A stretch of DNA of 64,000 nt from positions 21,653-85,652 of the forward strand of contig CAZOQJ010000001.1 in the NCBI GenBank assembly GCA_964581905.1. Reading direction: 5' to 3'. This document shows, piece by piece, positions 15,184 through 64,000 of the stretch; position 1 is the first letter of the stretch, and each line of letters begins with the position of its first letter. Under the pieces are notes generated by a model that was given only the letters and a program-made list of their open reading frames with translations, made no database searches and was not told the origin of the DNA. The translations under genes were made by a program, and so were the position numbers. The stretch is from an uncultured Pirellulales bacterium. GTDB taxonomy: Bacteria > Planctomycetota > Phycisphaerae > Sedimentisphaerales > Anaerobacaceae.

Positions 15184-15193
15184 GACAAGAGTA

Positions 15194-26029: not shown

Positions 26030-28402
26030 ATGTCGACTATACGTCTTCCAGGCCTGCAGACAGGCATTGATACAAATGCGCTTATTGAACAATTGATGGC
26101 TATTGAACGCCGTACGCTCAACGTCTGGGAAAACCGCAAAGCGGTTTGGCAGGAGAGACAGGAAGCCCTTAGCACCTTGGAATCCAAGTTGCGGAATCTG
26201 CGAACCTCCGTTCGAGCACTTTCAGATGCCGATGAGCTCCGCGCCTTTAATGTCTCTACAAGTGACGAGGAAATAATAACGGCTGAAGCGACAAATAATG
26301 CCTTTGAAGGAAATCACACAGTTGTAATCAACCAGTTGGCCAATGCTGAGCGATGGGTTCATAGGACCGGCCATAAATATGCCGAAGACTATGTTGGAAC
26401 TGGCACTTTTGTCTATTCGTATAATTATAAAGAAACAAGTATAACAACCACTGCAACTACGACGCTACAGGATCTGGTCGGTCTAATTAATAACGATGCA
26501 AATAATCCCGGTGTTACTGCCGGTCTCTTACACTATGACGATGCCTACCATCTGGTTCTTAATGGTGAGGATGCAGGCACAGATTATCAAATTCACGTCA
26601 ATACAGGCAGTACCGAGGTCTGGAAAAGTGGCTCGGCCTTTACTTATGATAATGACAACGCTTTGTTGAGCACAAAAATTAAAGACCTCGACCAGTTCAG
26701 CGGGACTCTCAGCGACTCAGATGAATATGAAGAATATATTGAAATAAAAAATTGTACAGACCATTTTGGTGTTTCAACAGCTCAGGTGGACTTTTATGTT
26801 AATGAAAATACAACACTTGGCCATCTTATTTCAGAGATTAACGATGCTTTTGATGGAAGGGCAAAAGCAGTTTTCGAAAATGGCAAGATTGTTTTAACAG
26901 ATAGTGTCGGTGGCGAAAGCAGTCTTTGGATCGAATTAGGGTGGAATGACGATGGCGGGGGCACATTGCTGGACGGGCTTGCTATGAGTGTTACAACCGA
27001 GGGCAACGCAACAGAAGCGAGTCTGTCCGGTTACACAGCATCGGCCTTTACTAAAAGCCAGACCGCCCAGGATTCAAAAATCAAGGTCGATGGTTTTCCC
27101 GATACGTCAGCGACTTCGGAAGTTCAAACGGTATCATTGAGCGGTGGTCCCGACGGCGGCTCATTTACACTCACTTACCGAGGTGAAACAACATCAGATA
27201 TTGCTTACAATGCAACTGCCGAAGAAATTAAGACCGCACTTGAGCTACTCTCAACCGTCAATTCAGGTGATATAACGGTTTCTGGCTCTATCGATGATGG
27301 TACAACTTTTACATTTGCGAATTCATTAGGTAACGTTGACCTGCTTATGATTAACTCTTCACTAACAAACGGGGGAAGTCCGTTAACAGCCAGTATTTCT
27401 GAAACAACGCCGGGTAGTGACAGTTACATCAGCAGAAGCTCTAATACGGTTGACGATGTGATTAGCGGTGTCACGCTGCATCTGCACGATACTACCAGTG
27501 CCAATGGCGAAGATATAACTCTTACCAGAGATGTACAATCGGTCAAAGATAAACTTGATGCAATGGTCATCGCCTACAATGCTGCTATCAGCCATATTAA
27601 AGAAACGACCGGCTATAATGAGATTACACAGGTCGGCGGTATCTTGATGGGGGATTATGTTGTTTCGACCATCCAATACCAGTTCCGTGGACCGCTTATC
27701 GAGCAGGCAGCCGGTTTTTTAGAGGATGTCGATTCGTTCTTGACCCCCCTCAACATCGGCCTTGAATTCGACAAGGACGGCATACTAAGTCTGGACACAA
27801 ACGATTTTGATGAAGCAATAGCCGAAGATTATAGGGGTGTTCTTGCTTTAATAGGCGCCGACAAGACAGGCAGCAGCACCAGCGATACCATCGAGTTCTA
27901 CAGTGCCAGTACAAATTATACAACAGGGGGTGAATATAACGTACAGGTGACAGTAAGCGGTGGGGTCATCACAAGTTCCCAAATAAAACTTTCAACCGAA
28001 TCGACATATCGTGATATGACAATTAGCAGTAATATTATTACCGGCAATAGCAGCTTTGACGATAACGGCGACCCAGTGTATGCTGAGGACGGTCTTCAGC
28101 TAAGCGTCGACTTGACTACGGATGGCGATTATACCGCTACGGTTTACGTCAAGCAGGGTTTTGCAGGTAAAATAGAGGATAAAATCGATAGAATGCTAAA
28201 GGCAACCGTAGGTTCTATCATAGTTGACCAGGACCATGTCGAAGACCAGATAGAACTGCTCCAGGACAAAATTGAGGATGAAGAATACCGTCTTGAGCAA
28301 AGAGAGAAAAGATTGGTACTTCGCTTTGCCCGCCTCGAAAAAGCATTGACCTTAATACAAAACCAGATGGCCGCTGCAAGCATAATAGCTATATCGTCAT
28401 AA
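26030..28402 (+). CDS. fliD: flagellar filament cap protein FliD (enlarged, 790 aa)
   Basis: N-terminus TGIDTNALIEQLMAIERRTLN and C-terminal coiled coil LEQREKRLVLRFARLEKALTLIQNQ are typical of FliD. It has a long central Thr/Ser/Gly-rich insertion. Confidence 0.9.
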   Translation: MSTIRLPGLQTGIDTNALIEQLMAIERRTLNVWENRKAVWQERQEALSTLESKLRNLRTSVRALSDADELRAFNVSTSDEEIITAEATNNAFEGNHTVVINQLANAERWVHRTGHKYAEDYVGTGTFVYSYNYKETSITTTATTTLQDLVGLINNDANNPGVTAGLLHYDDAYHLVLNGEDAGTDYQIHVNTGSTEVWKSGSAFTYDNDNALLSTKIKDLDQFSGTLSDSDEYEEYIEIKNCTDHFGVSTAQVDFYVNENTTLGHLISEINDAFDGRAKAVFENGKIVLTDSVGGESSLWIELGWNDDGGGTLLDGLAMSVTTEGNATEASLSGYTASAFTKSQTAQDSKIKVDGFPDTSATSEVQTVSLSGGPDGGSFTLTYRGETTSDIAYNATAEEIKTALELLSTVNSGDITVSGSIDDGTTFTFANSLGNVDLLMINSSLTNGGSPLTASISETTPGSDSYISRSSNTVDDVISGVTLHLHDTTSANGEDITLTRDVQSVKDKLDAMVIAYNAAISHIKETTGYNEITQVGGILMGDYVVSTIQYQFRGPLIEQAAGFLEDVDSFLTPLNIGLEFDKDGILSLDTNDFDEAIAEDYRGVLALIGADKTGSSTSDTIEFYSASTNYTTGGEYNVQVTVSGGVITSSQIKLSTESTYRDMTISSNIITGNSSFDDNGDPVYAEDGLQLSVDLTTDGDYTATVYVKQGFAGKIEDKIDRMLKATVGSIIVDQDHVEDQIELLQDKIEDEEYRLEQREKRLVLRFARLEKALTLIQNQMAAASIIAISS

Positions 28403-49941: not shown

Positions 49942-50475
49942 TTACATTGCCTTACCTGGTTTGAGGGCTGATATTTGTATCACCGTATCAAGCAAGTTCG
50001 GATTAGTTGTGCTCTTTCTTGTGTAAAAACTTTTTATCCACAGAAAGTGCTCTGAAGATTTGGTTTTGAGAAGAAACTCAATAAGCTGCTTAAGTGTTAG
50101 ATTTTCCAATTTGGTTTCGACACTGACCTCGCAGTGGTTTGAGTCCAGTTGCAATATCTCTTGTTTCATCGTTGCGACTTTTCCTACAAAACCCAGCTCC
50201 GTGGTTATTGACTCTAAAAACGTGAGAACTTCGAATTCTCCTTCCTCCGAGGCAACTTTTCTTTCTATATCATCCAACTTGGCTCGCAAGGCAAGATACT
50301 GTGTGCTCTTTGCTCGAAGCTCGTCAAGCTCTCGTTGTTTTTCAGGGATTACTCGATTGAGCGTCTCTATACGCTCGATAGCAGGCCTGATGCTAAACAC
50401 AAACAGCACCCAGACTGCTGTAAAGACCAGCAGGCCAACAGTCAACCAACGCTCTCTATGTGTCAACCGTATCAT
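49942..50475 (-). CDS. gspM: T2SS assembly-platform protein GspM-like (PilO-like)
   Basis: 177 aa with one N-terminal TM helix, then a coiled coil. Last gene of the gsp block. Confidence 0.6.
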   Translation of the reverse strand: MIRLTHRERWLTVGLLVFTAVWVLFVFSIRPAIERIETLNRVIPEKQRELDELRAKSTQYLALRAKLDDIERKVASEEGEFEVLTFLESITTELGFVGKVATMKQEILQLDSNHCEVSVETKLENLTLKQLIEFLLKTKSSEHFLWIKSFYTRKSTTNPNLLDTVIQISALKPGKAM

Positions 50476-50477
50476 TT

Positions 50478-51941
50478 TTACTCCAGCGTCGTTAATGATA
50501 TTAAAATAGTAAAATGAACCAGCTCGCCGTCATGTTCCCTTCGAATATCCTGGACATCCGCAGTTGAAAATTGTGGTGCATCCTGCAATAGTCGTTGCCA
50601 CTTATACAAGGGTTCAAACGACCGAGAAACCCCTGTCAATCGGACAGAATTGGTAGTTATCAGCATGCTGTCAACATTAATATTTAGCCCTGAAGGGAGA
50701 CTTTTAGTAATCGCATACAGGATTTCAGCTGGCCCAACGGCAGAAGGGCCGAACATCGCATGATTTTTTTGCGAGGATTGCAATTTCTGCTCTAACTGGG
50801 CAAGCGGGTTTACAATATTTTTTTCTTCCGGCAGTGTTTGTTGAAAAATTTCTTTGATTTCGTTTTTTATATGTGTGTATCTCGTTTCTAAATGTGACAA
50901 TCGTATAAATAGTCCAACAAGTGATATAACGGCAATCGCAGCCACAAGTGTTGCGCATATTGTTAAATCCTTTTTCAAGTCCAATGTGGGCTTTACGTCA
51001 GCGTTATCATCCTTAAGAAAATTTACACCCAGAGTTTCCTCAGGTGCCAATGCCCTCAAAGCAAGACCTTCAGCAACACATATTGAGGCATCGCTGTTGC
51101 TATCTGGTGAGCTTTCTACTCTGGCATAAGGGTTGACAGTGATTGCCTGACAGTGCAGATTTTCCTCAACAAGCGTTTCGAAACCGTCATAGGCATGGTT
51201 TCCACTTGCCAGATAAATTCTGGTATCCTCCTCGATTTCGCACCCGAACACTTTTTGCCAGGTAATTTTTGCTTCATTTGACAGCGTTTCCGCAACGCAT
51301 TTTTGAGCTAAACCAGTATCGTTATCGGATGGACTATCGATTATAATATTTCTAACGATTAAAATATTATTGTCCTGAGTAATTGCCAAAGCGAGATAAC
51401 GTTTATCTACATACGCAATAATGGCTTTGCCGGCCGTTATTTCGGGATGATTAACCGTAACCGTCGAATGGATTGCAAAAATTACAGCATCCACAAAAGC
51501 AGGATTCATCCTCGTACCAGCTAATGTATTTAGTCTTTCGTGCAGCGATTCCCTCGCAACCGCTGCAGTGAGAGCAAAATACTCCCCGCCCGGCAGCTGG
51601 TGGTGCGAGCATATCTGGGCAACAATTTCATTCGGTTGTATTGGGAAATTGTGCTCTAATGCGGACTCGGTAAGTTCATGGACTTGTTCTGCATCGGCAG
51701 AACAAGCTGCCAGATTTCGAAAGAAAACAGTATTATGTGGCATTGATATTGCCACTTCCGCACGCCGGTCAAACCCATGCCGGCTGGCTAACGACTTGAG
51801 TATACCCGGCATAGAGTCTGAGCTTCTGCGGGTTGGTGTGCTGAGGGCTTTTTCAATGCGGAACTGTCCATCTGTGCGCGAGACCTGCACCGCACGCAAA
51901 CCGGAAGAACCAAAATCTATACCAATACTTCGCTTAATCAT
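50478..51941 (-). CDS. gspL: T2SS assembly-platform protein GspL-like (PilM-type actin-like domain + TM + PilN-like)
   Basis: 487 aa. N-terminus SIGIDFGSSGLRAVQV (actin-like fold), a mid-protein TM helix ICATLVAAIAVISLVGLFI, and a periplasmic C-terminus. Confidence 0.7.
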   Translation of the reverse strand: MIKRSIGIDFGSSGLRAVQVSRTDGQFRIEKALSTPTRRSSDSMPGILKSLASRHGFDRRAEVAISMPHNTVFFRNLAACSADAEQVHELTESALEHNFPIQPNEIVAQICSHHQLPGGEYFALTAAVARESLHERLNTLAGTRMNPAFVDAVIFAIHSTVTVNHPEITAGKAIIAYVDKRYLALAITQDNNILIVRNIIIDSPSDNDTGLAQKCVAETLSNEAKITWQKVFGCEIEEDTRIYLASGNHAYDGFETLVEENLHCQAITVNPYARVESSPDSNSDASICVAEGLALRALAPEETLGVNFLKDDNADVKPTLDLKKDLTICATLVAAIAVISLVGLFIRLSHLETRYTHIKNEIKEIFQQTLPEEKNIVNPLAQLEQKLQSSQKNHAMFGPSAVGPAEILYAITKSLPSGLNINVDSMLITTNSVRLTGVSRSFEPLYKWQRLLQDAPQFSTADVQDIRREHDGELVHFTILISLTTLE

Positions 51942-51955
51942 TGTTTTTTCGGTTT

Positions 51956-52975
51956 TTATCTAATGGATGCCACAGTTGTAAATCCTTGTAGCTCTTTGTA
52001 TAAAATCACCTCAACGGTTTTCGTTTTCACATTTTTTTTGAGTGTCGCAGATATTTCACGGCTGAGGCAGTCAAAATTTCCCCGTGCTGTGACATGATAG
52101 TATCTATCTTTAGGGCTGACAGTAGCTGTATTTTTAATCGTGTAGTAAACGCTGTCTGTCATTCCGGGAATATCTCGCAGTTCCGTGATGCTGTCAAAGG
52201 GTTTAATTCTTCGCCGGTCAATGATTAGCTGTGCCAATATAGGGTCCATTTTTTCTGACAAACTCTCAATCACTCGCTTCGAAGCACAATTAATGTTGAT
52301 TTCTCCATCGCCGTGGACTGTTACATAATCACGCATGCTGTCAAAAGCATCTGGTGTTACCGCTTTGACCAGCAGGAGTTCTTCAACCGTATCAAGCGGG
52401 GCGTTTTTGCATCTGTATGGGTGGGCTAACCCTGCATAGTAGCCTGACTCTGCTCCTGAATTTTCGTGTTTTATAAAGGGCAGATATGTAACCTCATCAT
52501 CGCTATCGGTCCAATCGATGATTGAGCAGACCAGGCCATAGCCAATATGAGAATGTCCGGCACGCTCCTTATTAATCAGGTCGATTAGCCGAAGTAACTG
52601 TTCTATTCTGTTTCGATTCAATTTGCCGTTCTTATCTTTTAATAGATTCACGTTCAATTTGCCGCTTTCTTCGGCAATAGTTACAGAGCAGTTTCCATCA
52701 CCGACATCGAAGATATTTTCCCCTGTAAATAGATTCGGTACCATCTTGTTTGTATGGAAGTTGTTGACATCCCTGGCAGCAGCGATTGCAATATTCAGTC
52801 CTGCCCTTGCGCAATTTAGTGCCTGCAAGGATTTTCGAAAATCGTCTGCCGTGCGGAGGCTGGTACGGGATTTATAGTTGAAAGCAAGCAGCAGTCCTCC
52901 CAGCATAATGACCATACACAGGACAACTACGACTATAAATCCTCTTTGCTCTGCTTTTACCCGTTTCAGTCTCAT
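51956..52975 (-). CDS. gspK: T2SS minor pseudopilin GspK
   Basis: 339 aa. RGFIVVVVLCMVIMLGGLLLAF leader and ALNCARAGLNIAIAAA. Size and gene order fit GspK. Confidence 0.8.
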   Translation of the reverse strand: MRLKRVKAEQRGFIVVVVLCMVIMLGGLLLAFNYKSRTSLRTADDFRKSLQALNCARAGLNIAIAAARDVNNFHTNKMVPNLFTGENIFDVGDGNCSVTIAEESGKLNVNLLKDKNGKLNRNRIEQLLRLIDLINKERAGHSHIGYGLVCSIIDWTDSDDEVTYLPFIKHENSGAESGYYAGLAHPYRCKNAPLDTVEELLLVKAVTPDAFDSMRDYVTVHGDGEININCASKRVIESLSEKMDPILAQLIIDRRRIKPFDSITELRDIPGMTDSVYYTIKNTATVSPKDRYYHVTARGNFDCLSREISATLKKNVKTKTVEVILYKELQGFTTVASIR

Positions 52976-53697
52976 GGCTTGTTAACCGATACTAATATCT
53001 CTGTTCGAGCCTCTTTACCTTGATTCATTTGGCAGCATACGTATGCGACAGTGCTGCAGTGACATTGTCGGTAATTTTCATCCTCACAGTTGATTCCAAT
53101 TTTTACAGCAAACGGCAGTTTCATCTTGTCTTTAAAATCCCACTTGTTTAGCCATTGCTGTCCGTCAAAAAATGACAATTCAATGCACTCGATGTTTCTT
53201 GCAATCTGTCGCCAGTTTCTTTTTTTCGCAACATTCTCAGATGCGCCGATAAATCTTTCCTGGCTTAAAAAGAGTGTGCCTTTTCTTTTATCAAATTTAT
53301 AAATGACCTCGAATAACCCATCTGTTGCCCCCCGGCCTCCTGAAACCCTGCTCGTAGTTACCAGATGCAAAATTTCCCCGGTTGGTTCGTCAGGGTTGCC
53401 CTTAAAATAATGACTGACTTCATTTTTTTGTGTTTTATTTCCCATCTGAGAAATTGATGTCACCTGGTATGTCTGTTTCTCGTCCGTTCCGGGATACGAG
53501 CAGCGTATTTGTCGGGCCATCTGCTCCAGCACGTTCCGGCCCTGTTGATAGAGTGTCATTTTGGCCTTGCATATTTGTGTTGATTTCGACGTTGCAAAAT
53601 AGCTCCCGTACACCATAGAGACAATAGTAACGATTATCGTCATTGCTACGAGAATTTCGAGTAGTGTAAATCCATCTTTTTTAGACTTACTATTCAT
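52972..53697 (-). CDS. gspJ: T2SS minor pseudopilin GspJ-like
   Basis: 241 aa. Prepilin motif KKDGFTLLEILVAMTIIVTIV and C-terminal KLPFAVKIGI. Confidence 0.65.
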   Translation of the reverse strand: MNSKSKKDGFTLLEILVAMTIIVTIVSMVYGSYFATSKSTQICKAKMTLYQQGRNVLEQMARQIRCSYPGTDEKQTYQVTSISQMGNKTQKNEVSHYFKGNPDEPTGEILHLVTTSRVSGGRGATDGLFEVIYKFDKRKGTLFLSQERFIGASENVAKKRNWRQIARNIECIELSFFDGQQWLNKWDFKDKMKLPFAVKIGINCEDENYRQCHCSTVAYVCCQMNQGKEARTEILVSVNKP

Positions 53698-54154
53698 TTA
53701 ATTTCCTGTCGGCAACGTAAGTTGACATTTGCAGGTGCTTATTGCCCGTGCCCTGTTTCCAGTTTACATCAACAAGTACGCTTCGCAATCCGGCAATATC
53801 TACCTGGCCTGATTGAGACAAGCCCACATTTGTAACCTGAGTTTGCCAGTTCAGTGTTAAGCCGTTACTTTCCACCGTGCCGGAGTTACTTTCTAATTTT
53901 GGGTAGCCAGCAGCCAGGAGCTCTGCAATTTTCTCGTTTGCCAGGAGAACAGCCTGAGAGGTTATTTCTGCTGTCTCGAACATTCTAATGCTGATAAGAT
54001 GCAGCCTGAGCAGCGCCAGCATAGAAATTGAGACGATTGTAAGGGCTATGATAACCTCTATAAAAGTAAAGGCTTTCGTTCGCACAGCCGGTCCTGCCGG
54101 GCGTTTATCTTTACCTGTTGTGTTATCCTTGCTCATCGAGATTCCAGCTTTCAA
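53690..54154 (-). CDS. gspI: T2SS minor pseudopilin GspI-like
   Basis: 154 aa. Prepilin-like KAFTFIEVIIALTIVSISMLALL with Ala rather than Gly at -1. AVLLANEKIAEL is GspI-like. Confidence 0.6.
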   Translation of the reverse strand: MKAGISMSKDNTTGKDKRPAGPAVRTKAFTFIEVIIALTIVSISMLALLRLHLISIRMFETAEITSQAVLLANEKIAELLAAGYPKLESNSGTVESNGLTLNWQTQVTNVGLSQSGQVDIAGLRSVLVDVNWKQGTGNKHLQMSTYVADRKLNE

Positions 54155-54641
54155 TATCAGCGTTGTCCTCTATGCCGCCATCCTCGCCATCTTTGCCATA
54201 GGATTCTAGGTCATAATCTTTGCTCTGAACCCCTGGGCAGATGTAGATATATTTGTTGCCCCATGAGTCTGAGGGCGCTTTATCGAGATAGCCGTCTTTG
54301 TTATATCCCTTTATGCCTGGGTCACGGACAAGAGCTTCAAGCCCCTCGGAAGTAGTTGGAAAACGGCTTGTGTCGGTCTTAAATAAGGCCAATGCAGATT
54401 CGATATTGCGTATATCAATTTTGGCTTTCATCCTCCGGGCCTGCTCGGGCCTGCCTAATATCCTCGGCATAATTATGGTAGCCAAAATACCCAAAATCAC
54501 TACTACAATCATGAGCTCAATTAAGGTAAACCCCATCGATAGTCGATTACCGATTGCCGATTGCCGGTTGATGGCGGTGAATCGAAAATTCCCTGTGTTG
54601 TGTGATTGTTGCTTGTTTTTTCTCATCTTACAGAGCTCCAT
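54123..54641 (-). CDS. gspG: T2SS major pseudopilin GspG with unusually long leader
   Basis: GFTLIELMIVVVILGILATIIMPR and DSWGNKYIYICPG..YDLESYGKDGEDGG are canonical GspG. The start ATG overlaps the gspF stop (TAATG), giving a 37-aa pre-sequence. Confidence 0.9.
   Translation of the reverse strand: MELCKMRKNKQQSHNTGNFRFTAINRQSAIGNRLSMGFTLIELMIVVVILGILATIIMPRILGRPEQARRMKAKIDIRNIESALALFKTDTSRFPTTSEGLEALVRDPGIKGYNKDGYLDKAPSDSWGNKYIYICPGVQSKDYDLESYGKDGEDGGIEDNADIESWNLDEQG
54544..54571 (-). repeat. 7-bp tandem repeat (GCAATCG-like x4) inside the gspG leader codons
   Basis: The plus strand reads CGATTAC CGATTGC CGATTGC CGGTTGA. Two units are perfect and two are degenerate. Confidence 0.8.
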
Positions 54642-55828
54642 TAAAGAATCTGATTTATTTCAAATATAGGCAGTAAAATTGCAAGCACTATAAAGCCTAC
54701 AACGGCACCCATAACAACAAGTATCGCAGGCTCAAGTAGTGAGGTCAGCATTTTAGCTGTGCTCTCGACCTCACCCTCGTACATGTCTGCAATATTTATA
54801 AGACCATCCTCTACGTTTCCACTGACTTGAGCTGTAGCAATAACGTGAAACACAATGGGTGGAAACAACCCTGTTTTCCTTATTGCATTGGCGATAGCAT
54901 CACCCTTGCTAATGCTGTCTTTCACAGCGGTCAGGGCACCTGCAAGGAAGCTGTTTTTAATCACCCCTTTTGCAATCTCCAGTGCCCTAAGTATCGGAAT
55001 ACCGCTTGCAAGGAGTATTCCCAATGTTCTTGTCAGACGTACTATCTCCAGTTTAAGAAAAAGGTTACCAAAGAGGGGCAGCTTTAGTTTGAAGCTATCC
55101 GCAATCAATCTTCCATCTTTGGTTCTTAGCCATGCTCCAATTCCAAGGCAGGCCGTAAAAAGCACAACGGCAATTAACATAAAGTAAGTTTTTATAAGAG
55201 CGCTCGTTGCGATAAGCAATCTCGTGGGCCAGGGAAGAGCTCGATTCATTTCAAGAAAAATCTGCGTTATGCTGGGCACTACGAAAGATAGAAGAAATAC
55301 CACAACTCCGGCTGCAACCACAGTCATCATCGCAGGATACGCTACAGCGGACTTAACCTTACTGGCGAGATGCACACGTTTCTCCAGCATTTCCGCCAGT
55401 CGCAGGAGTATTTCTTCAAGAGTTCCGCTTTCCTCACCTGCGGCCACCATATTTACAAACAAGCTCGAAAAGACGCCTTGGTGTTTCCTAAGCGCATCGG
55501 CCAGTGTGCTGCCGGCATTAACACGGTCAGCAACTTGCTGCATAATTTCTGCAAGTGGATGTTTCTGGGTTCCCAAACGCACTATTCTGCGTTTGGGAAC
55601 ATCTTGTAACTGCTCGACTATTGCAGAAAGAGCAGGTACAAGTGGTAATCCTGCTCGCAACAGTGTCGCCAACTGACGCGCCAGCATACAGATATCTTTT
55701 GTGCTGATTCTTCTGAAAATGTCCCTTTGGTGTGTGTTTACCTGTGTTTCTGTACGGTCATTATTCGCGACAGCTCGACGTGCCGTGACCAGCTTGTTAC
55801 TTAACAGGTTTTGTTCAGCTACCGACAC
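54641..55828 (-). CDS. gspF: T2SS inner-membrane platform protein GspF
   Basis: 395 aa. Duplicated GspF/PilC domain (LATLLRAGLPLVPAL.. and LGILLASGIPILRALE) with three TM segments. Confidence 0.92.
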   Translation of the reverse strand: MSVAEQNLLSNKLVTARRAVANNDRTETQVNTHQRDIFRRISTKDICMLARQLATLLRAGLPLVPALSAIVEQLQDVPKRRIVRLGTQKHPLAEIMQQVADRVNAGSTLADALRKHQGVFSSLFVNMVAAGEESGTLEEILLRLAEMLEKRVHLASKVKSAVAYPAMMTVVAAGVVVFLLSFVVPSITQIFLEMNRALPWPTRLLIATSALIKTYFMLIAVVLFTACLGIGAWLRTKDGRLIADSFKLKLPLFGNLFLKLEIVRLTRTLGILLASGIPILRALEIAKGVIKNSFLAGALTAVKDSISKGDAIANAIRKTGLFPPIVFHVIATAQVSGNVEDGLINIADMYEGEVESTAKMLTSLLEPAILVVMGAVVGFIVLAILLPIFEINQIL

Positions 55829-57410
55829 GTTCAGTTACTCCTATGCTTGCCTGGGCGCTATCCTGTGTGACCCTGCATACTTCTTCAAGAGTGGTGTCAC
55901 CGGCCAATACCTTACGTAACCCATCCTCTCGCAGGGTGCTCATGCCTTTTTCAACGGCAACTTCTTTTATAATGTGCGAAGCGCTTCGTTTTACTATTAG
56001 TTCCTTGATATCGTCATCAACGACCAGCAGTTCAAAGATTCCTGTCCTTCCCAGATATCCTGTTTCAAGACAGTTCTCGCAGCCACGTCCTTTATAGAAC
56101 TGTGTGCCCGGCGCCGATATTTTCTCAAATTCACTGCATAGAGAAATTACCTGCTTATCCGGGCTGTATGGTCTTTTGCATTGTGGACAGTTGATTCGCA
56201 GGAGCCGCTGGGCCATAACTGCGGCGACCGACGATGAAATCAGGTAAGGTTCAATACCCATATCAATCAGTCGTGTTACCGCTGAGGCTGAGTCGTTTGT
56301 GTGCAAGGTGCTTAAAACCAGGTGACCGGTAAGTGAAGCTTGAATGGCAATCTGGGCGGTTTCGGTATCACGAATTTCTCCTATCATAATCACATCGGGG
56401 TCCTGCCTGAGAATGTGTCGCAGACAATTGGCAAACGTAAGATTTATTTTCGGCTTTATCTGCATTTGCCCAACACCGGGCAATTGATATTCTATTGGGT
56501 CTTCAACTGTAAGGATGTTTCGTTCTTCGCGGTTAAGTTCGTTCATAGCTGCATAGAGGGTAGTTGTCTTGCCGCTTCCTGTAGGACCGGTGAGCAAAAT
56601 TATACCATGCGGCAATCTAATCAGGTTCTTGAAGTGATTAAGTATATTCGGACAAAATCCTATCTCATCCAGGCCCAGTTTGGAGTTGCTCTTATCCAGC
56701 AGTCTCAGCATTACTCGCTCGCCGCCCAATGTAGGAATGACGGAAACTCTAATATCCACGAGGTTCTGGCCTATTTTAATTCGGCTTTGGCCGTCTTGTG
56801 GTAATCTTCGTTCGGCAATATTAAGATTTGCCATAATTTTCAATCGTGAAATGAGTGCTGCAATCTGCTGCTTCGGCAAAGTCAATATATCGTGCAACAC
56901 TCCATCAACCCGGAAGCGTATTCGCATTTCATTTTCGTATGGTTCGATATGAATATCACTGGCCCGGCTGTGCACCGCCTGGAAGAAGATTTTATTGACT
57001 AATTTTATGATGGGGGCCTTATTGGCGATATTGAGCAGGTCTTCAGCCCGAGTTTGAATGGGACTTCCGTCAACATCATCGTCATTGGCTGATAAATCTT
57101 GCGCATCAATGTTTGCACCGTCACTTTCCATATTAGTGCTTTGATAGTAACAGCGGCTTATGGCCTGTTCTATTTCGGAGGCGGGGCAGACAACTCGGCT
57201 GCACGGCTGGGCTAAGATGCTCGAAATTGCGTCGTATGCTTCTATATTGAGCGGCTCTGCCAGGGCGATTGCAGTCTGTCCGTTTTCCAGTGTGATTGGA
57301 ATAGCACACTGCTTTTTAAGAAACTCAAGCGGCAGCTTCCTTACAAGCTGCGGGTTCAACTGCTCCGGCAGTATAGTGTCCAAATACTGATTTGTTGTTT
57401 GTTTTTCCAA
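55815..57410 (-). CDS. gspE: T2SS ATPase GspE
   Basis: 531 aa. Walker A LTGPTGSGKTTTLYA, Asp/His boxes, and tetracysteine CPQCKRP..GCENC. Confidence 0.96.
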   Translation of the reverse strand: MEKQTTNQYLDTILPEQLNPQLVRKLPLEFLKKQCAIPITLENGQTAIALAEPLNIEAYDAISSILAQPCSRVVCPASEIEQAISRCYYQSTNMESDGANIDAQDLSANDDDVDGSPIQTRAEDLLNIANKAPIIKLVNKIFFQAVHSRASDIHIEPYENEMRIRFRVDGVLHDILTLPKQQIAALISRLKIMANLNIAERRLPQDGQSRIKIGQNLVDIRVSVIPTLGGERVMLRLLDKSNSKLGLDEIGFCPNILNHFKNLIRLPHGIILLTGPTGSGKTTTLYAAMNELNREERNILTVEDPIEYQLPGVGQMQIKPKINLTFANCLRHILRQDPDVIMIGEIRDTETAQIAIQASLTGHLVLSTLHTNDSASAVTRLIDMGIEPYLISSSVAAVMAQRLLRINCPQCKRPYSPDKQVISLCSEFEKISAPGTQFYKGRGCENCLETGYLGRTGIFELLVVDDDIKELIVKRSASHIIKEVAVEKGMSTLREDGLRKVLAGDTTLEEVCRVTQDSAQASIGVTERVGS

Positions 57411-57540: not shown

Positions 57541-59601
57541 TTAGTTCTCCTTGATGTTTTTCTCAAGTTCTTGCAGTTCTGGTTTCATTTCATCTTTCTT
57601 CTTCTCGGTTATCTGGTCTAAATCCTCCTGGTTACTCAGGACATACGGCGTTATAAATATGAGCAGATTCGTTTTCTGCACTTCATCTTTATTGTGCTTG
57701 AACAGGTTGCCAAGTATGGGAATGTCACCGACAAAGGGTATTTTCTTTTCAACAGTAGTTTTGTCATCGCGAATTAGTCCACCGATGACGATAGTCGAGC
57801 CGGAATTCATGGAAACAACGGTCTGTGCCTGTCTTTTAGCCGTTGTCGGAGTATCGGAGGAAGCGGTGGTTTCAATAAGCTTTGTGAACTCGCTGTCAAT
57901 TTCGAGCCTGACCAGGCCGCCCTGACTGATATGCGGCACTATCTCCAGACTGATTCCAACGTCTTTGTATTCGTATGTTTTTATCACGGTTGGAGTAAGT
58001 AAGTCGGTTGTTTCGGTAATTCTTGACTCGGTAACAAATGGCCTGTTTTCACCCACGATTATGCTGGCCTTTTGATGATTTGAGGTCATGATATGTGGCG
58101 TTGAAAGAATATTAACGCCGGTCTGTTTCTCCAACGCCGTTATTATTGCGCCGATGTTCGTAGTTGTGCCGCTTTTCTTCCATGCGCCGACACTTAGTCC
58201 TTCGAGGTCTCCACTTGCGAAATCCACGCGCGGACCAAAATTTGTTGACGCAAAAAATCGAATACTACTTTCTACAGCGTCATCGAGCGTTGCCCAGTCG
58301 ATACCTATTTCTTTTAAGCCCTCCTCGCTGACCTCCATAATGAGCATTTCAACTAAAACCTGCTCACGAATTATATCGAGCTTTTCGACAATCTCCGAGA
58401 TTACCTCAAAGTCCTGAGCTGAAGCACTGATTATCAGTGCGTTTGTACCTTCATCGGCGGCAATCTGAACCCCCTGTGGGGCTTCGAGTGCACCGGAGAT
58501 TCCTAAGTTCATAACAGCTTTGGTGAGTGATTCAGCAGTTTCTTTGGCTGGTGCGTTCTTAAGGTACATTACGCGAACATTAGCAGCTCTGCTCGGACGT
58601 TGAATATCAAGCTGATTTGCTAATTTTTTGATTGTTTCGGTGTCCTGAGTGTTAGCAACAACAATAAGAGAATTTGTTCTTACATCAGGTAAAATTTGGA
58701 TACCTCTGTTAATCTGTGGCGCATCCCGGCTACGTGCCGTCCGTGAAGGAACAGACTTGCTTTTCAGCATTATGCTGGTTATCTGTTCACTGAGAACCTG
58801 TGCGGAAGCATATTCCAATCCAATTACGGCAACTTGCTCTTTTGAGCCTGTTACGTCAAGTTTCTGAATAATTTTGGCAACATGATGTATATTTGAAGAT
58901 GCATCTGTAATCAAAATCGAATTCGTTCGGGGGTAGGTTGCCATATATGAGCTTGTGGCTAAAAGCGGCTTAATAATCTGACTTACTTCTGTAACATCAG
59001 CATATTTCAACGGAATAATCTGAGTAACAATAGAATCACTTTCAGGGATTTCCGACGGTTTGCTGCCAATGCGAACCTGTAAATTACGCTTGGAAGCTTC
59101 TGCTCTTGGGACTATTTTCACAAGGTCTCTAGCTGGCACAGCTGCATAGCCTTTTACTTCCAGAATCGATTCCAAAACCTTATAAATTTCACCAAGACGT
59201 ATCTTTGTAGGCGACATAACCGTAACAGTGCCGCGGACACTATCATCTACAATAAAATTAACCCCGGTTATATCTCCAATGGTCTTGAGCATAATCCGAA
59301 TATCAACCTGGTCGAAGTTTACAGATACAAGCTCATCAGCCATACCCGGATTGGTAAGTGCAGGCAGATTTACCCCCGCGTCTTGCTGTCGCAAGACAGC
59401 AGCGGGGGTATCAGAGCTCAATTGCTCTGCGACGTTGGTGGAGCTGTCCGCAAAGCTTATACAAAATATACAAATAAGACAGAAAAGACTTTTCGGCCTA
59501 CGGCGGGCTCCTCCCAGATGAGTTAACGGCTGTGATTTTCGCCTGTTTATATTTAAGTTCTTTAGGGGCATTGGTTTTACCTGCTCACCTGAAGTTCTCA
59601 T
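57541..59601 (-). CDS. gspD: T2SS outer-membrane secretin GspD
   Basis: 686 aa. N0-N3 domains and secretin core (TPHIMTSNHQKASIIVGENRPF, IVIGGLIRDD..KIPFVGDIPILGNLFK). The exact start is uncertain. Confidence 0.92.
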   Translation of the reverse strand: MRTSGEQVKPMPLKNLNINRRKSQPLTHLGGARRRPKSLFCLICIFCISFADSSTNVAEQLSSDTPAAVLRQQDAGVNLPALTNPGMADELVSVNFDQVDIRIMLKTIGDITGVNFIVDDSVRGTVTVMSPTKIRLGEIYKVLESILEVKGYAAVPARDLVKIVPRAEASKRNLQVRIGSKPSEIPESDSIVTQIIPLKYADVTEVSQIIKPLLATSSYMATYPRTNSILITDASSNIHHVAKIIQKLDVTGSKEQVAVIGLEYASAQVLSEQITSIMLKSKSVPSRTARSRDAPQINRGIQILPDVRTNSLIVVANTQDTETIKKLANQLDIQRPSRAANVRVMYLKNAPAKETAESLTKAVMNLGISGALEAPQGVQIAADEGTNALIISASAQDFEVISEIVEKLDIIREQVLVEMLIMEVSEEGLKEIGIDWATLDDAVESSIRFFASTNFGPRVDFASGDLEGLSVGAWKKSGTTTNIGAIITALEKQTGVNILSTPHIMTSNHQKASIIVGENRPFVTESRITETTDLLTPTVIKTYEYKDVGISLEIVPHISQGGLVRLEIDSEFTKLIETTASSDTPTTAKRQAQTVVSMNSGSTIVIGGLIRDDKTTVEKKIPFVGDIPILGNLFKHNKDEVQKTNLLIFITPYVLSNQEDLDQITEKKKDEMKPELQELEKNIKEN

Positions 59602-59613
59602 GCTGCTAACAAT

Positions 59614-60528
59614 TTACTGCAAAGAAAATGAGAATCTTTTAGTTTCATTACCACGCAACAGTTCTAAATTCATAGTTGCCTGTGACCTTGCCTTCTTGAA
59701 AATCTGGTAAGCTTTCTGCTTACTTGTTAATCGGTGGCCATTAACCATACGAATAACATCACCGTTTCTTAAGCCGATATGTTTCGCCGCTGGTATGTTT
59801 TCCAGGCCTGTTATTCTAAGTCCTTCTACTCGGTTGTCCGCGAAGCAAAGCTCGATGAGCGCCTTCTTCAGTATTGCCTCTACATATCCTATCCTGGTTT
59901 GAATTTTGACAGGGTCTTGCTCCTGTGGCGAATTGGTTTTCACCCCTGAGGGGCTATTATTGCTCGTCTGGCATGAAGATGCCCGGGCATTATTATCATC
60001 GTTGCTGCTGTACTTTCCATTGTTGAGACCTAATATTTTTCTTTCTCCGTTATGTACCAGAGTTACTGTATCTGTGTCTATGCCTTCAATGCGAGAGTTT
60101 CTGACCGTTTGGCCTATCTTGTAGAGGTCAAGCTCACTGGTTTTAAGGTCTTTTATGACAGCCCTCGAAACTGGTGGGCTGCCGGATATGGTGCCGAATA
60201 ATGCCAGCCCCAATTCCTCGGAAGCTGACTGCCAAGAGCCGGTAGGATTACTCATTGATGACCGTTTGCCTGTGTTCGTTTGGTCTGAAGTGCCGAATGG
60301 ATTTCTTTCTATGATATCAGCATAATCTTCCTGCGACAAAACAGGTGCTTCGATAGTTTTTCTTACACAGGCTTTGTCCCCACCCAATGCTGAGGCTGGG
60401 ACCAGGCCCTTTTTAATGCGCTCAGGCAACAGCACTTTTCCGGCAATTACATAACCCAACGCCAAGACAAGCACTAACTTGCTTATAGACAGAACCTTAT
60501 GAATATACAATATGTTATCTTTTTTCAT
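59614..60528 (-). CDS. gspC: T2SS protein GspC-like (TM + PDZ domain)
   Basis: 304 aa. N-terminal TM helix and C-terminal PDZ-like GLRITGLENIPAAKHIGLRNGDVIRMVNGHRL. Directly upstream of gspD. Confidence 0.65.
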   Translation of the reverse strand: MKKDNILYIHKVLSISKLVLVLALGYVIAGKVLLPERIKKGLVPASALGGDKACVRKTIEAPVLSQEDYADIIERNPFGTSDQTNTGKRSSMSNPTGSWQSASEELGLALFGTISGSPPVSRAVIKDLKTSELDLYKIGQTVRNSRIEGIDTDTVTLVHNGERKILGLNNGKYSSNDDNNARASSCQTSNNSPSGVKTNSPQEQDPVKIQTRIGYVEAILKKALIELCFADNRVEGLRITGLENIPAAKHIGLRNGDVIRMVNGHRLTSKQKAYQIFKKARSQATMNLELLRGNETKRFSFSLQ

Positions 60529-61562: not shown

Positions 61563-64000
61563 TTAACATTCGCTTCTCGCTGTATTGCGTGCTTTCCGCT
61601 TTCGTGCATCTCGGCACGTAATTACTATCATCACCATAATATACCCCACGTATGGCAGTAAAAATTCGACAATGTTGCCCTGGCGGTTAGGAGACATTGC
61701 GCAACCTCCACCGCCGCCGCCACCTCCTCCGATGATATCACCAACAGAGCCGCCAACGATAAATTGTGTCAAGTGTGTAGTCTTGAAACGTAGAGCATGT
61801 AAGGTCGAAGATATCTCGATATTCTCAATGTCTGTTATCCCTTGCTGACTGAGTGTGCCGGTAAGCGGATTATACCAGTATGCTGAAGTTGGATTATCAG
61901 AGTTCGAAACCTCATATGGTATGGTGATTGTAACCGGCTGGTCGAAATTTATCCCGCTCGGCCCGAATTCGTATGGCAGACTGAAACACTCAAGCGAAAA
62001 CTCTGGTGGATTTTTTACCCTTGATATCGTAATCTTTATATCACATGCATAAGCCCCTGCTGGCACTATGATAGAAACATCGTTCACACCATCTATGTTA
62101 GCTGGCTCAGTACCGACTGTTTCGTCTAAAGAAGTAGAAGCATCCTTTGATGCTAATGCGTTAGATTCTATGAAAGTGCTTCCAGCATAATAAATATCTG
62201 TACTTGTGTTTCTACTATCAGCCCATACCATATACGGATGGCCGTATATGTCTGCTCCAATTGCCGGTTCACTTTGGTTCGCATTCGAGCCGTCGTCGCC
62301 TATGAGCGCATTTGTTTTACTGCTGGAACCTGCCTCAACAAAGTACAAATCTGTATCTGTATTGCGTTCATCCTGCCAACACGCGAAAACCTTTAAGTTA
62401 TTGCCTGTGCTGCCTGTAACAGTAACAGTTGGTTGCCGCTGGTCGGCGCTGGAGGTATCGTCTATAATAGAACTGCCTGTCAAAGGACTGGCTGGCAAGC
62501 CATTTGAAGATGCATAATATATGTCCCTATTGCCGGATGTATCATCAACCCACAGCAAATGCAAAATGGACCCAATAGCTTCAGTAGCAATTGCAGGACT
62601 TGATTGGTTATTTGCATTGCTTACTATCGCCACATTAGTCCAGGGGCCATTGTTTGAAGCCGCTCCATAAATGTCATTTGAGCCGCCTCTTGCATCTGTC
62701 CACACTACGTAAATCGTATTGTCAGAGTCTGCAACAACAGCTGGTTCGGTTTGGTCGGAGCTATCAGAGGTTATTCGTGAAATTGTTGTTACAAAATCGT
62801 TGCTCGATGAAGCTACATAGATATCCTGATTACCTGCTTGGTCATCCTGCCAGACAACGTATGCAGTCTTCGATACAGAGCTGTCAACAACTATAGCAGG
62901 ATTGACCTGATTGTCGTTAGAGTCGGTGATACTTTTTTCGGTAGCCCAGTTTATTCCGTCAGTAGACGTCGATATGTAGATATCCCAATTTTCCCTCCTG
63001 TTATCCTGCCATACCACGTAGAGCTTGTCATCAGCATCTACCGCAATAGCAGCGTTACACTGGTCAGTATTATTACTTGTTAGCTGAACGCTGCTGTCAA
63101 AGTTGTTTGCTCCCGCTGTAAGTTTGCCGATATATACATCTCGACTGCCCGTTTGACCTGCATGCCAGGCTACCCAAATGTCACCGCTGCTGTCTCGTAC
63201 CGTTGAAGGTGTATCACTTGAGTTATCTGAGCCTGAATTGACCTTCTTATTTTGGCCGAATGAACGCATCTCGGTCTGGAAGGAGTATGAATACTCACTC
63301 ATGACATTGCCTGCGATGTCTGTAGCGTTTACCGTAACAGCAACTGTCTGGTCGAAATCAAACATGTCATTCGCCTGATAGATGAACCTATAATCAGCTT
63401 TCGTGCCCACCCTGCGGCAATGGCCGTATTCACTGCTATAGTCGGCTGTATTACCTGTGTACACAGTATTGTTGTTGACTTTAATAGTTATCGAATTGGC
63501 ATCAACGCCTTTGCCGGAATCTACGATATGTAACGTTACTAAATTATTTATGGGCACTTGTATAGCATCAGCAGCCGGCGAACAGTTATTAACGCTCGGT
63601 GCAGACGTATCAGCGCTAACAGTTATTGTAATCGATTCAGAATCTTGGGCGTTGTCGTCGCTTGCAATGAAAGTAACTTCATAACTGCCTATTTGGCCGT
63701 CATTTGGAGTCCAGCTAAAGGTTTGGTTGGCAAACGTCGCTCCGCTGGGTAAACCTCCTGTTGAATACGTTATTGTATCGCTGTCAGGGTCGGTTGCGCT
63801 CACAGTGAAAGTTAAAGAATCGTCTGTGTAAACTGATTGGTTGCCAATTGTACTCAGTACAGGTGCTCGGTTAGTATTGCTTACTGTTATGGCAATCGTC
63901 TCAGAATCCTGGGCCTGACCATCGCTGGCAGTAAAGGTTACCTGGTGGTTTCCTGCCTGATTGTAACCGGGCGTCCATGTAAATGCCTGGCCGACAAATA
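61563..64000 (-). CDS. large secreted/surface protein (5' end outside the window): Ig/cadherin-like repeats + 7-bladed propeller-like repeats + Gly9-Cys/TM/basic C-terminal tail
   Basis: I translated the frame upstream of the tracked GTG and it stays open to position 64000, adding a second copy of the F.W.P...Q.G...VTF.ASDG.AQDSE.I.ITV repeat. There are seven repeats ending in DIY/DVY/DLY (e.g. YVVWQDNRRENWDIYISTSTDG). C-terminus GGGGGGGGGC-AMSPNRQGN-IVEFLLPYVGYIMVMIVIT-CRDARKRKARN. Confidence 0.8.
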   Translation of the reverse strand, partial: FVGQAFTWTPGYNQAGNHQVTFTASDGQAQDSETIAITVSNTNRAPVLSTIGNQSVYTDDSLTFTVSATDPDSDTITYSTGGLPSGATFANQTFSWTPNDGQIGSYEVTFIASDDNAQDSESITITVSADTSAPSVNNCSPAADAIQVPINNLVTLHIVDSGKGVDANSITIKVNNNTVYTGNTADYSSEYGHCRRVGTKADYRFIYQANDMFDFDQTVAVTVNATDIAGNVMSEYSYSFQTEMRSFGQNKKVNSGSDNSSDTPSTVRDSSGDIWVAWHAGQTGSRDVYIGKLTAGANNFDSSVQLTSNNTDQCNAAIAVDADDKLYVVWQDNRRENWDIYISTSTDGINWATEKSITDSNDNQVNPAIVVDSSVSKTAYVVWQDDQAGNQDIYVASSSNDFVTTISRITSDSSDQTEPAVVADSDNTIYVVWTDARGGSNDIYGAASNNGPWTNVAIVSNANNQSSPAIATEAIGSILHLLWVDDTSGNRDIYYASSNGLPASPLTGSSIIDDTSSADQRQPTVTVTGSTGNNLKVFACWQDERNTDTDLYFVEAGSSSKTNALIGDDGSNANQSEPAIGADIYGHPYMVWADSRNTSTDIYYAGSTFIESNALASKDASTSLDETVGTEPANIDGVNDVSIIVPAGAYACDIKITISRVKNPPEFSLECFSLPYEFGPSGINFDQPVTITIPYEVSNSDNPTSAYWYNPLTGTLSQQGITDIENIEISSTLHALRFKTTHLTQFIVGGSVGDIIGGGGGGGGGCAMSPNRQGNIVEFLLPYVGYIMVMIVITCRDARKRKARNTARSEC

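Follow-up and report, generated by a model that had tools for sequence, protein, structure and literature searches.

A candidate uncatalogued Cys-type sorting tail encoded beside a CPBP protease and a type II secretion operon in Planctomycetota

Four tripartite C-terminal sorting signals that contain an invariant Cys have been catalogued, namely MYXO-, JDVT-, Synerg- and CGP-CTERM, and each is paired with a cognate CPBP protease of the 'Mrt' type (Haft, bioRxiv 10.1101/2023.06.07.544157). Cleavage of such signals by CPBP 'myxosortases' was predicted in 2023, and one case was confirmed experimentally in 2025, when MrtX was found to cleave the MYXO-CTERM of TraA in a Cys-dependent manner, in Myxococcus and in E. 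coli (2025 mBio, PMC11980579). Here, we describe a tail of this general kind in a 64,000-nucleotide stretch of DNA, referred to below as the window, from an uncultured Pirellulales bacterium (GCA_964581905.1, contig CAZOQJ010000001.1, positions 21,653 to 85,652). The tail ends a large protein, the cargo, whose gene overlaps that of a CPBP protease, and an operon for the type II secretion system (T2SS) follows. Sequence comparisons indicate that the locus probably encodes an uncatalogued Cys-containing tripartite sorting signal paired with an Mrt-like protease and a T2SS in Planctomycetota. As biology this is of a familiar kind, an uncatalogued family whose genetic layout is unusually clean.

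In the working model for MYXO-CTERM proteins, Sec export and transmembrane anchoring come first; an unknown enzyme then lipidates the Cys, a cut is made distal to it, and the T2SS brings the protein to the surface (PMC11980579). Dedicated MrtJ/JDVT-CTERM pairs encoded in one operon have also been described, and the preprint that reports them does not mention Planctomycetes (bioRxiv 10.1101/2023.06.07.544157). Literature on Phycisphaerae in combination with CAAX proteases or T2SS yielded myxosortase papers only, and those checked contain no mention of Planctomycetes. The present locus would add a fifth signal type, carried by members of Planctomycetota (Phycisphaerae/Sedimentisphaerales).

The placement of cargo, protease and T2SS genes in one operon-like run directly supports, at the genome level, the sequence of events that has been proposed for MYXO-CTERM, in which anchoring precedes cutting and cutting precedes T2SS transport. 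As a compact three-part system, the locus could be transferred to a heterologous host, and two of its motifs, E-F-L-L-P-Y and the CaaX-like C-[SA]-[LVMI]-S, supply specific residues for studying substrate recognition by CPBP proteases. A ZU5-like domain directly before the tail raises, in addition, a two-cut model of surface anchoring. The NCBIfam models of June 2026 miss the system, and its proteins consequently carry names such as 'hypothetical', 'putative Ig domain-containing' and 'CAAX endopeptidase family'; new tail and protease models would be justified.

The C-terminal tail and its conservation

Translation of the minus strand yields nine consecutive Gly residues, Cys, AMSPNRQGN, a hydrophobic helix, a basic cluster and the stop codon (Table 1), exactly as a preliminary description of this DNA had read them, to the base. 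The Gly codons are a mixture of GGA, GGT and GGC with no homopolymer, as had also been stated. This run is the only one of five or more Gly in all six frames of the window, for which composition predicts about 3e-7 runs of nine. The transmembrane helix of the window protein carries the conserved motif E(+12)-F-L-L-P(+16)-Y(+17), numbered from Cys = 0. Net charge amounts to +5 behind the helix versus +1 in the 15 residues preceding it, an asymmetry that fits a protein with its bulk outside and its C-terminus in the cytoplasm. When the last 235 cargo residues were modeled with AlphaFold2 (AF2) on an alignment of 26 sequences (mean predicted local distance difference test, pLDDT, 79), residues 177-199, which hold the Gly run, the Cys and the spacer, were disordered (pLDDT <50), and residues 200-233 formed a single long helix.

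The tail is a family trait. A search with the 811 visible cargo residues returned 656 homologs, and those that are named come nearly all from metagenome-assembled genomes of Planctomycetota, Phycisphaerae or Sedimentisphaerales; the tail is kept in about 180 Planctomycetota (Phycisphaerae/Sedimentisphaerales) proteins. Two or more Gly followed by Cys occur within the last 90 residues of 109 out of 121 homologs compared. Position frequencies were derived from 176 unique tails. The Cys is invariant (1.00) and is preceded by Gly at -1 (0.99) and -2 (0.96), and it is followed by Ser or Ala at +1 (0.78 and 0.22), by Leu, Val, Met or Ile at +2 (0.99) and by Ser at +3 (0.94). Further along, Gly at +8 (0.79), Glu at +12 (0.78), Pro at +16 (1.00) and Tyr at +17 (0.94) mark the spacer and the helix, and Lys or Arg at +28 (0.93), Asp at +31 (0.95) and Arg at +33 (0.70) mark the basic cluster, the family consensus of which reads [KR]-x-R-D-x-R-x-R-K. 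The conserved signal is therefore GG-C-[SA]-[LVMI]-S, a polar spacer of fixed length, E-F-L-L-P-Y where the helix begins and, behind the helix, [KR]-x-R-D-x-R.

These frequencies sharpen what the preliminary description had proposed. Its central claim, that of an unclassified tripartite sorting tail whose Cys could be a site of modification or cleavage, is supported, since the Gly-Cys element persists in orthologs and no CTERM model claims the tail. As to the Gly run, the two residues beside the Cys are conserved and the length is not: between 2 and 11 Gly directly precede the Cys among homologs, which makes the number nine, to which the preliminary description gave too much weight, incidental. 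The run is a flexible stalk of variable length. The expectation that the linker would vary freely was not borne out, because the distance from the Cys to P[YFC] equals 16 in 90 of the 109 homologs, and conserved residues lie around and within this segment.

A profile of 47 tail positions, searched against 1.84 billion representative proteins, gave 184 matches at E <= 0.001, including 86 at E <= 1e-10, and nearly all of them end within a few residues of the C-terminus. So small a number of matches, placed almost without exception at the C-terminus, shows that the tail did not arise by chance.

A slippage-prone DNA repeat was considered as the source of the Gly run and rejected, given the mixed codons, although the length of the run does vary among homologs. 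An open reading frame (ORF) on the plus strand (61585..61848, 87 aa) that encodes nine consecutive Pro is the antisense image of the run and no gene. No similar tail was found on another ORF of the window. The window tail also has a terminal Cys (…SEC*, 61566..61568) and a further Cys just past the helix (ITCRD, 61614..61616). Tails that end in Cys (…SKC, …GKC, …SEC) make up 26 of the 176 unique sequences and represent a second Cys feature, on the cytoplasmic side.

The adjoining protease, the secretion operon and their linkage across genomes

The strongest evidence lies beyond the tail to which the preliminary description was confined. It consists of an overlapping gene for a myxosortase-like CPBP protease and, after it, a T2SS operon, a context in which the 'unclassified signal' becomes part of a system that is explained fairly well. 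The ATG of the protease overlaps the cargo stop codon (ATGTTAA; junction …GAATGTTAA…), which suggests translational coupling of the two genes. Among 40 orthologs of the protease, the EExxxR, FxxxH and HxxxN motifs are conserved, with E171, E172, R176, H272 and N276 invariant and F232 and H236 at least 90% conserved. The enzyme is therefore predicted to be catalytically intact.

Within the CPBP superfamily, the closest relatives of this protease are sorting enzymes. In all 40 orthologs, seven Mrt models rank above every non-Mrt CPBP model. For the window protease, the NCBIfam scores are 74.6 bits for MrtP (cut-off 250), 66.7 for MrtS (cut-off 130), 61.6 for MrtC (cut-off 195), 44.7 for MrtJ (cut-off 75), 38.8 for MrtZ (cut-off 325) and 31.8 for MrtX (cut-off 180). 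A protease profile searched against the sequences in PDB gave no match. The window enzyme also contains an insertion of about 27 residues (SPTLQSRRRSIAMATGRYGDG…, residues ~193-219) between EExxxR and FxxxH, which is present in a minority of orthologs (e.g., P0122, P0125, P0140 and P0161).

Directly downstream of the protease lies a complete T2SS operon (GspC-M) that extends from 60528 down to 49942. GspD, GspE and GspG pass their equivalog cut-offs; GspC, GspF, GspI, GspJ, GspK, GspL and GspM do not, and their assignments are best matches (Table 1). No exosortase, rhomboid or Lgt-like gene occurs among the window ORFs that were scanned, which are a part of all ORFs in the window.

Table 1. 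Features of the cargo, protease and T2SS genes in the window (positions are those of the 64,000-nucleotide stretch).
Feature	Position	Strand	Basis or remark
Cargo gene, 3' part	61563..>64000	minus	811 codons + stop; 5' end past window edge
Beta-propeller-type repeats, motif W-x-D-x-R-x(4)-D-I-Y	62200..63430 (approximate)	minus	TIGR04275, 4 stretches, E 8e-15, under cut-off; repeats also evident from the translation
ZU5-like beta-sandwich, directly before tail	61746..62153	minus	AF2, Foldseek, weak Pfam
H-L-T in F-K-T-T-H-[F/L]-T block	61767..61775	minus	Candidate cis-autoproteolysis site by analogy with PIDD and GPS
Gly x9 run	61704..61730	minus	GGA GGA GGT GGC GGC GGC GGT GGA GGT
Signature C-A-M-S	61692..61703	minus	Cys = TGC at 61701..61703
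AMSPNRQGN after Cys	61674..61700	minus	Translation
Polar spacer PNRQGN	61674..61691	minus	Length fixed across family
Transmembrane helix IVEFLLPYVGYIMVMIVIT	61617..61673	minus	Mean Kyte-Doolittle 2.12 over 19 residues
Cytoplasmic basic cluster CRDARKRKARNTARSEC	61566..61616	minus	Net charge +5; last residue Cys
Cargo stop TAA	61563..61565	minus	
CPBP/Rce1-like glutamic intramembrane protease, 287 aa	60706..61569	minus	PF02517 62.8 bits vs 22.4
GspC with PDZ domain	59614..60528	minus	GspC_delta 96.9 bits, below cut-off; Pfam T2SSC, PDZ_2
GspD secretin	57541..59601	minus	TIGR02517 487 bits vs 351
GspE ATPase	55815..57410	minus	TIGR02533 660 bits vs 630
GspF	54641..55828	minus	TIGR02120 363 bits, cut-off 424 (below)
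GspG	54123-54641	minus	141 bits vs 88.85
GspI-like, GspJ-like, GspK, GspL	within 49942..54641	minus	Best matches, below cut-off
GspM-like	49942-50475	minus	Below cut-off; T2SSM Pfam E 1.8e-5

The arrangement recurs in other genomes. Through the protease alignment, 80 loci were recovered from species-representative genomes, nearly all labeled Planctomycetota, Phycisphaerae or Sedimentisphaerales. Sequence reaching 600 nucleotides or more upstream was available for 72 loci, and in 49 of them (51 with two broken genes included) a tail-bearing ORF runs up to the protease start. Of 67 loci that extend 2.5 kb or more downstream, 58 have GspD on the same strand within 2.5 kb after the protease. Among the 59 loci that could be evaluated on both sides, 36 have cargo, protease and T2SS, 16 have protease and T2SS, 6 have cargo and protease, and 1 has neither neighbor. 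The tail pattern itself is rare in these loci, where 49 of the 3,358 ORFs that are 100 aa or longer carry it; all stand directly before the protease except a truncated ORF about 1.3 kb upstream of it (L079). Some loci come from records titled 'Candidatus Aegiribacteria' or 'uncultured archaeon', and many from records titled 'uncultured Pirellulales' (L021, L036 and many others of the L0xx series); the odd titles probably reflect binning or labeling errors and no real taxonomic spread.

The system serves mainly a single cargo family, as seen from the propeller and ZU5-like core shared by 74 of the 75 long representatives that match the tail profile, but the tail is portable. The clearest case of portability is P0310 (L089 6001..7990), a protein with its own signal peptide and an unrelated immunoglobulin (Ig)-repeat body that ends in '…GGILGC-AMS-PYGQGNVA-EFLLPY…KRKDARNR'. 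Its gene is directly followed by that of a CPBP protease of the same subfamily, 44% identical to the window enzyme (E 2e-62), so that it is the tail, rather than the protein body, that travels with the protease. In P0347 and P0376, the tail stands behind Flg_new_2 (InlB B-type) repeats on short contigs that show no protease. The complete genome CP070675 (L031, L090) encodes one tail protein where its protease and T2SS genes lie, and another, without an adjoining protease, at a distance of about 330 kb; only one protease locus was seen in this genome, and one enzyme may therefore have more than one target.

Several of these loci have further peculiarities. At L089, a gene with a prepilin-type N-methyl domain follows the protease, where other loci have GspC/GspD. 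P0376 (L088 1015..2325), a protein of 436 aa, combines a TIR domain with its Flg_new_2 repeats and Cys tail, and it adjoins a second TIR-domain gene (L088 252..665); it is odd for a TIR domain to occur together with a sorting tail of the extracytoplasmic type. The system is split in some genomes, and the assembly CAYNKI01 (L018, L035) has one protease copy with a T2SS and no cargo, and a second copy beside a cargo gene. In three orthologous loci, the region divergently upstream of the cargo gene contains an EpsI-family gene (PF11984, exosortase-associated; L003/L004 3179..3916, L005 3851..4591) as well as genes for polysaccharide deacetylase, flippase and methyltransferase; in the window genome, this region would fall past the right edge of the window. 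These neighbors hint at a surface protein linked to exopolysaccharide (EPS) production.

Comparison with catalogued signals and rival explanations

Existing models do not account for the tail, in line with the preliminary description. No NCBIfam model matches the window tail at E <= 10, and among 45 homolog tails compared with the CTERM models, all those scored fall under the cut-off. Weak matches link 9 of the 45 to MYXO-CTERM (TIGR03901.2; best 19.1 bits vs cut-off 20) and 17 to JDVT-CTERM (NF033191.4; best E 0.0016), the sole bit score obtained for the latter being 11.6 against a cut-off of 27. Synerg-CTERM (TIGR04564) and the PEP-CTERM and GlyGly-CTERM models match none of the 45 at E <= 10. 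The preliminary description had also set the tail apart from known classes. In this respect it under-rated how near the tail is to the MYXO/JDVT/Synerg class, for the signal is unclassified and does not constitute a new class.

With MYXO-CTERM, the tail shares an invariant Cys in a Gly-rich signature, a helix (here +10..+27) and an Arg-rich end (here basic from +28). The involvement of a T2SS is likewise shared with the MYXO-CTERM/myxosortase system (MrtX, MrtC, MrtP), and MrtP, Mrt_core and MrtC are among the closest models for the protease. In contrast to MYXO-CTERM, which often has two Cys (GCGC), a second nearby Cys occurs in only 1 of the 176 tails studied here. Moreover, in Myxococcota and Bradymonadales a housekeeping myxosortase serves dozens of unlinked targets, whereas the loci described here belong to Planctomycetota and have one or few targets, usually in the same operon, with at least two in one genome.

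JDVT-CTERM and MrtJ (NF033191, NF033192) offer the closest parallel in organization. They have a single invariant Cys in a tripartite signal, an acidic residue and Pro in or at the start of the helix, and a target gene beside that of a CPBP protease, as seen here in 49 of 72 loci; this is a resemblance of organization and not membership. JDVT-CTERM has a near-invariant DP nine residues after the Cys, whereas the present tails have Ser, Asn or Asp at +9, Ile, Pro or Val at +10, and an invariant Pro at +16 that is preceded by Leu. Phylum and cargo family also differ from those of the JDVT-CTERM/MrtJ pairs, which are known from Pseudomonadota, and here the pair heads a T2SS operon. Synerg-CTERM and MrtS (TIGR04564, NF040589, NF041616) are similar in their Gly/Ser-rich cluster ending in a single invariant Cys and in their association with a dedicated, divergent T2SS cassette. 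MrtS is the third-best enzyme match, and GspC weakly matches T2SS_C_SYNERG. However, the Synerg signal is shorter and occurs in another phylum, Synergistota.

CaaX processing in eukaryotes and archaea is a further related system. Its enzymes Rce1 and MmRce1 belong to the same superfamily (PF02517) and have the same catalytic motifs, and C-[SA]-[LVMI]-S, with a small, an aliphatic and an X residue behind the Cys, reads as an internal CaaX box; unlike the CaaX motif, which forms the last four residues of a cytosolic protein, this one lies 46 residues from the end, is predicted to be extracytoplasmic and is followed by a transmembrane helix. In GlyGly-CTERM the GG abuts the helix, whereas here the Cys and a spacer of about 10 residues intervene; unlike PEP-CTERM, the tail has no P-E-P motif. 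The nearest system is thus JDVT-CTERM/MrtJ in organization, Synerg-CTERM in signature and MYXO-CTERM/MrtP by hidden Markov model score. A layout and context shared with these systems, combined with the failure of all curated models, points to an uncatalogued Cys-type signal outside the four named families.

On this basis, a route to the cell surface can be proposed. The cargo would be exported by Sec via the N-terminal signal peptide seen in its orthologs, and its C-terminal helix would keep it in the inner membrane while the basic cluster faces the cytoplasm, as hydropathy and the positive-inside rule suggest. The Cys, which caps the Gly stalk roughly 10 residues outside the helix, would be modified, probably with a lipid on the precedent of MYXO-CTERM and Rce1; for lipidation as such, we consider the chances roughly even. 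Gene linkage and homology suggest that the Mrt-like CPBP protease of the same operon recognizes the helix, with E-F-L-L-P-Y probably being part of what it recognizes, and cuts immediately after the Cys (C↓[SA]-[LVMI]-S; arrows mark cuts). Finally, the downstream T2SS would carry the folded cargo to the cell surface for anchoring by the modified Cys, as the operon structure and the T2SS dependence of MYXO-CTERM cargo, and likewise of GlyGly-CTERM cargo, would lead one to expect.

Several observations weigh against assigning the tail to an Mrt-type sorting system. The protease scores below every curated Mrt cut-off, including that of the generic domain model Mrt_core (NF040914), for which it reaches 69.3 bits against a cut-off of 100; the best Mrt_core match among the 40 orthologs (E 3.1e-25) is still estimated to fall under the cut-off. 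Its AF2 model (pLDDT 64.8, predicted TM-score 0.42) is too poor for active-site geometry. With a model of this quality, Foldseek returned nothing at E <= 0.001, and ABC transporter matches at E > 0.6 were discarded as meaningless. On the side of the signal, no scored homolog tail reaches the cut-off of a CTERM model. MYXO-CTERM helices have no charge or Pro, whereas the present helices have Glu at +12 (0.78) and Pro at +16 (1.00). A spacer of about 10 residues separates Cys and helix here, whereas none is found in Synerg-, CGP- and JDVT-type signals; that of the TraA MYXO-CTERM measures about 13 residues (PMC11980579). Lastly, about 30% of the protease loci have no adjoining tail-bearing gene.

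In one rival reading, the tail is a plain, permanent inner-membrane anchor, the Gly run is no more than a flexible stalk, the ectodomain stays periplasmic and the CPBP protease does other work, such as envelope maintenance or T2SS-related processing of a different substrate. Hydropathy and charge are those of any type-I-like anchor, 16 of the 59 evaluable loci have protease and T2SS with no adjoining tail-bearing gene, and no curated sorting-signal model was passed. However, a plain anchor needs neither an invariant Cys with a Pro fixed at 16, nor C-[SA]-[LVMI]-S, E+12, Y+17 and D+31. It also leaves aside the overlap of the cargo and protease genes, the fact that the protease's nearest families are all sorting proteases, and the case of P0310, where the tail and not the body tracks the protease, and we regard it as improbable. 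Sorting by a different enzyme, either an exosortase acting on a PEP-CTERM-like tail or a rhombosortase acting on a GlyGly-CTERM-like tail, is highly improbable. The EpsI-family (PF11984) and EPS genes divergently upstream of the cargo in L003-L005, the G-G directly before the Cys and the use of a T2SS by GlyGly-CTERM cargo would agree with it, whereas the absence of a PEP motif, the placement of Cys and spacer between GG and helix, and the lack of PEP-CTERM or GlyGly-CTERM matches among the 45 tails argue against it. Neither the scanned window ORFs nor the Pfam tables for those orthologous loci that were examined contain an exosortase or rhomboid, and the gene that consistently adjoins the cargo is that of the CPBP protease.

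A sorting tail cut by the Mrt-like protease leaves room for different fates of the Cys. It could be unlipidated and serve as a disulfide or thioester-type link to an envelope protein or polysaccharide, or as a mere recognition site, with the protein released instead of lipid-anchored. Lipidation lacks chemical proof even for MYXO-CTERM, and a part of the TraA and MXAN_4924 protein ends up in the medium (PMC11980579). EPS genes near the cargo in orthologous loci would also fit such a link. Conversely, Rce1 and MmRce1 act on lipid-modified Cys only, and Gly at -1 and Ser or Ala at +1 resemble the flanks of a lipobox Cys; this alternative as a whole is quite improbable.

The ZU5-like domain and other features of the window

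The N-terminus and full architecture of the cargo were taken from orthologs, which have lengths of about 1400-1900 aa (e.g., L007:1046-5662, 1539 aa). Their N-termini are Sec-type signal peptides (e.g., '…SVSTSVASA↓ATYY'), and they continue with a right-handed beta-helix, Big_9/He_PIG/PKD Ig-like repeats, beta-propeller repeats, the ZU5-like domain and the tail. Pfam He_PIG/Big_9 matches are also present in the window cargo.

In the AF2 model of the C-terminal 235 residues, residues ~40-175 form a confident beta-sandwich (pLDDT >90). The top Foldseek matches of this sandwich are the ZU5 domains of ankyrin and UNC5b (E 1.3e-4 to 4e-3, probability 1.00, TM 0.58-0.62), followed by GAIN domains of adhesion G-protein-coupled receptors (GPCRs). 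The fold is thus that of ZU5 by structure, and by sequence it scores 17.8 bits with Pfam ZU5 (PF00791) against a threshold of 21, with weak profile matches to ankyrin ZU5 sequences in PDB. The most conserved block of the 235 residues, F-K-T-T-H-[F/L]-T, lies at the turn before the last beta-strand and reads T-H-L-T in the window. F162, T164 and H166 are invariant, T165, F167 and T168 are at least 90% conserved, and the motif takes the form HFT in 83 homologs, HLT in 8 and HFS in 6. The ZU5 domain of PIDD cleaves itself at HF↓S, and GAIN/GPS domains do so at HL↓T. The likeness of the conserved block to these sites suggests that the cargo may cut itself.

ZU5, GPS and Nup98 autopeptidases form one superfamily with an active site in a C-terminal CxH motif, and ZU5 domains occur in bacterial surface proteins (Zhang et al. 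2012, PMC3482391). The cargo resembles the autoproteolytic ZU5/GAIN-GPS domains (PIDD, UNC5CL, adhesion GPCRs) and the ZU5 domains of bacterial surface proteins in its ZU5-like fold and in the conserved H-[F/L]-[T/S] in the turn that leads into the last strand. In contrast, its best structural matches, ankyrin and UNC5b, are non-cleaving ZU5 domains, and its Pfam score lies under the threshold. By analogy with the autoproteolytic domains, the cargo C-terminus might be processed twice, with a self-cut of the ZU5-like domain at H-[F/L]↓T preceding a cut by the Mrt-like protease after the lipid-modified Cys; we put this forward tentatively and consider it doubtful. If true, a lipopeptide of about 20-25 residues would retain the large ectodomain through non-covalent contacts, this peptide comprising T-x-F-x-x, the Gly stalk and the Cys-lipid and providing the last beta-strand of the ZU5 domain. 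Such an arrangement would be a bacterial counterpart of the N-terminal fragment (NTF)/Stachel arrangement of adhesion GPCRs, and the ectodomain could then be shed from the outer membrane in response to force or a signal.

Flagellar and glycosyltransferase genes make up the remainder of the window. Between 12222 and 28402, fliD (26030..28402) adjoins two giant multi-domain glycosyltransferase proteins, one of 1213 aa (15110..18751) and one of 2362 aa (18803..25891) with three GT2 domains, GT1/GT4 and TPR. The same interval contains a radical SAM gene and FkbM methyltransferases, and it is probably a flagellin glycosylation island inside a flagellar cluster.

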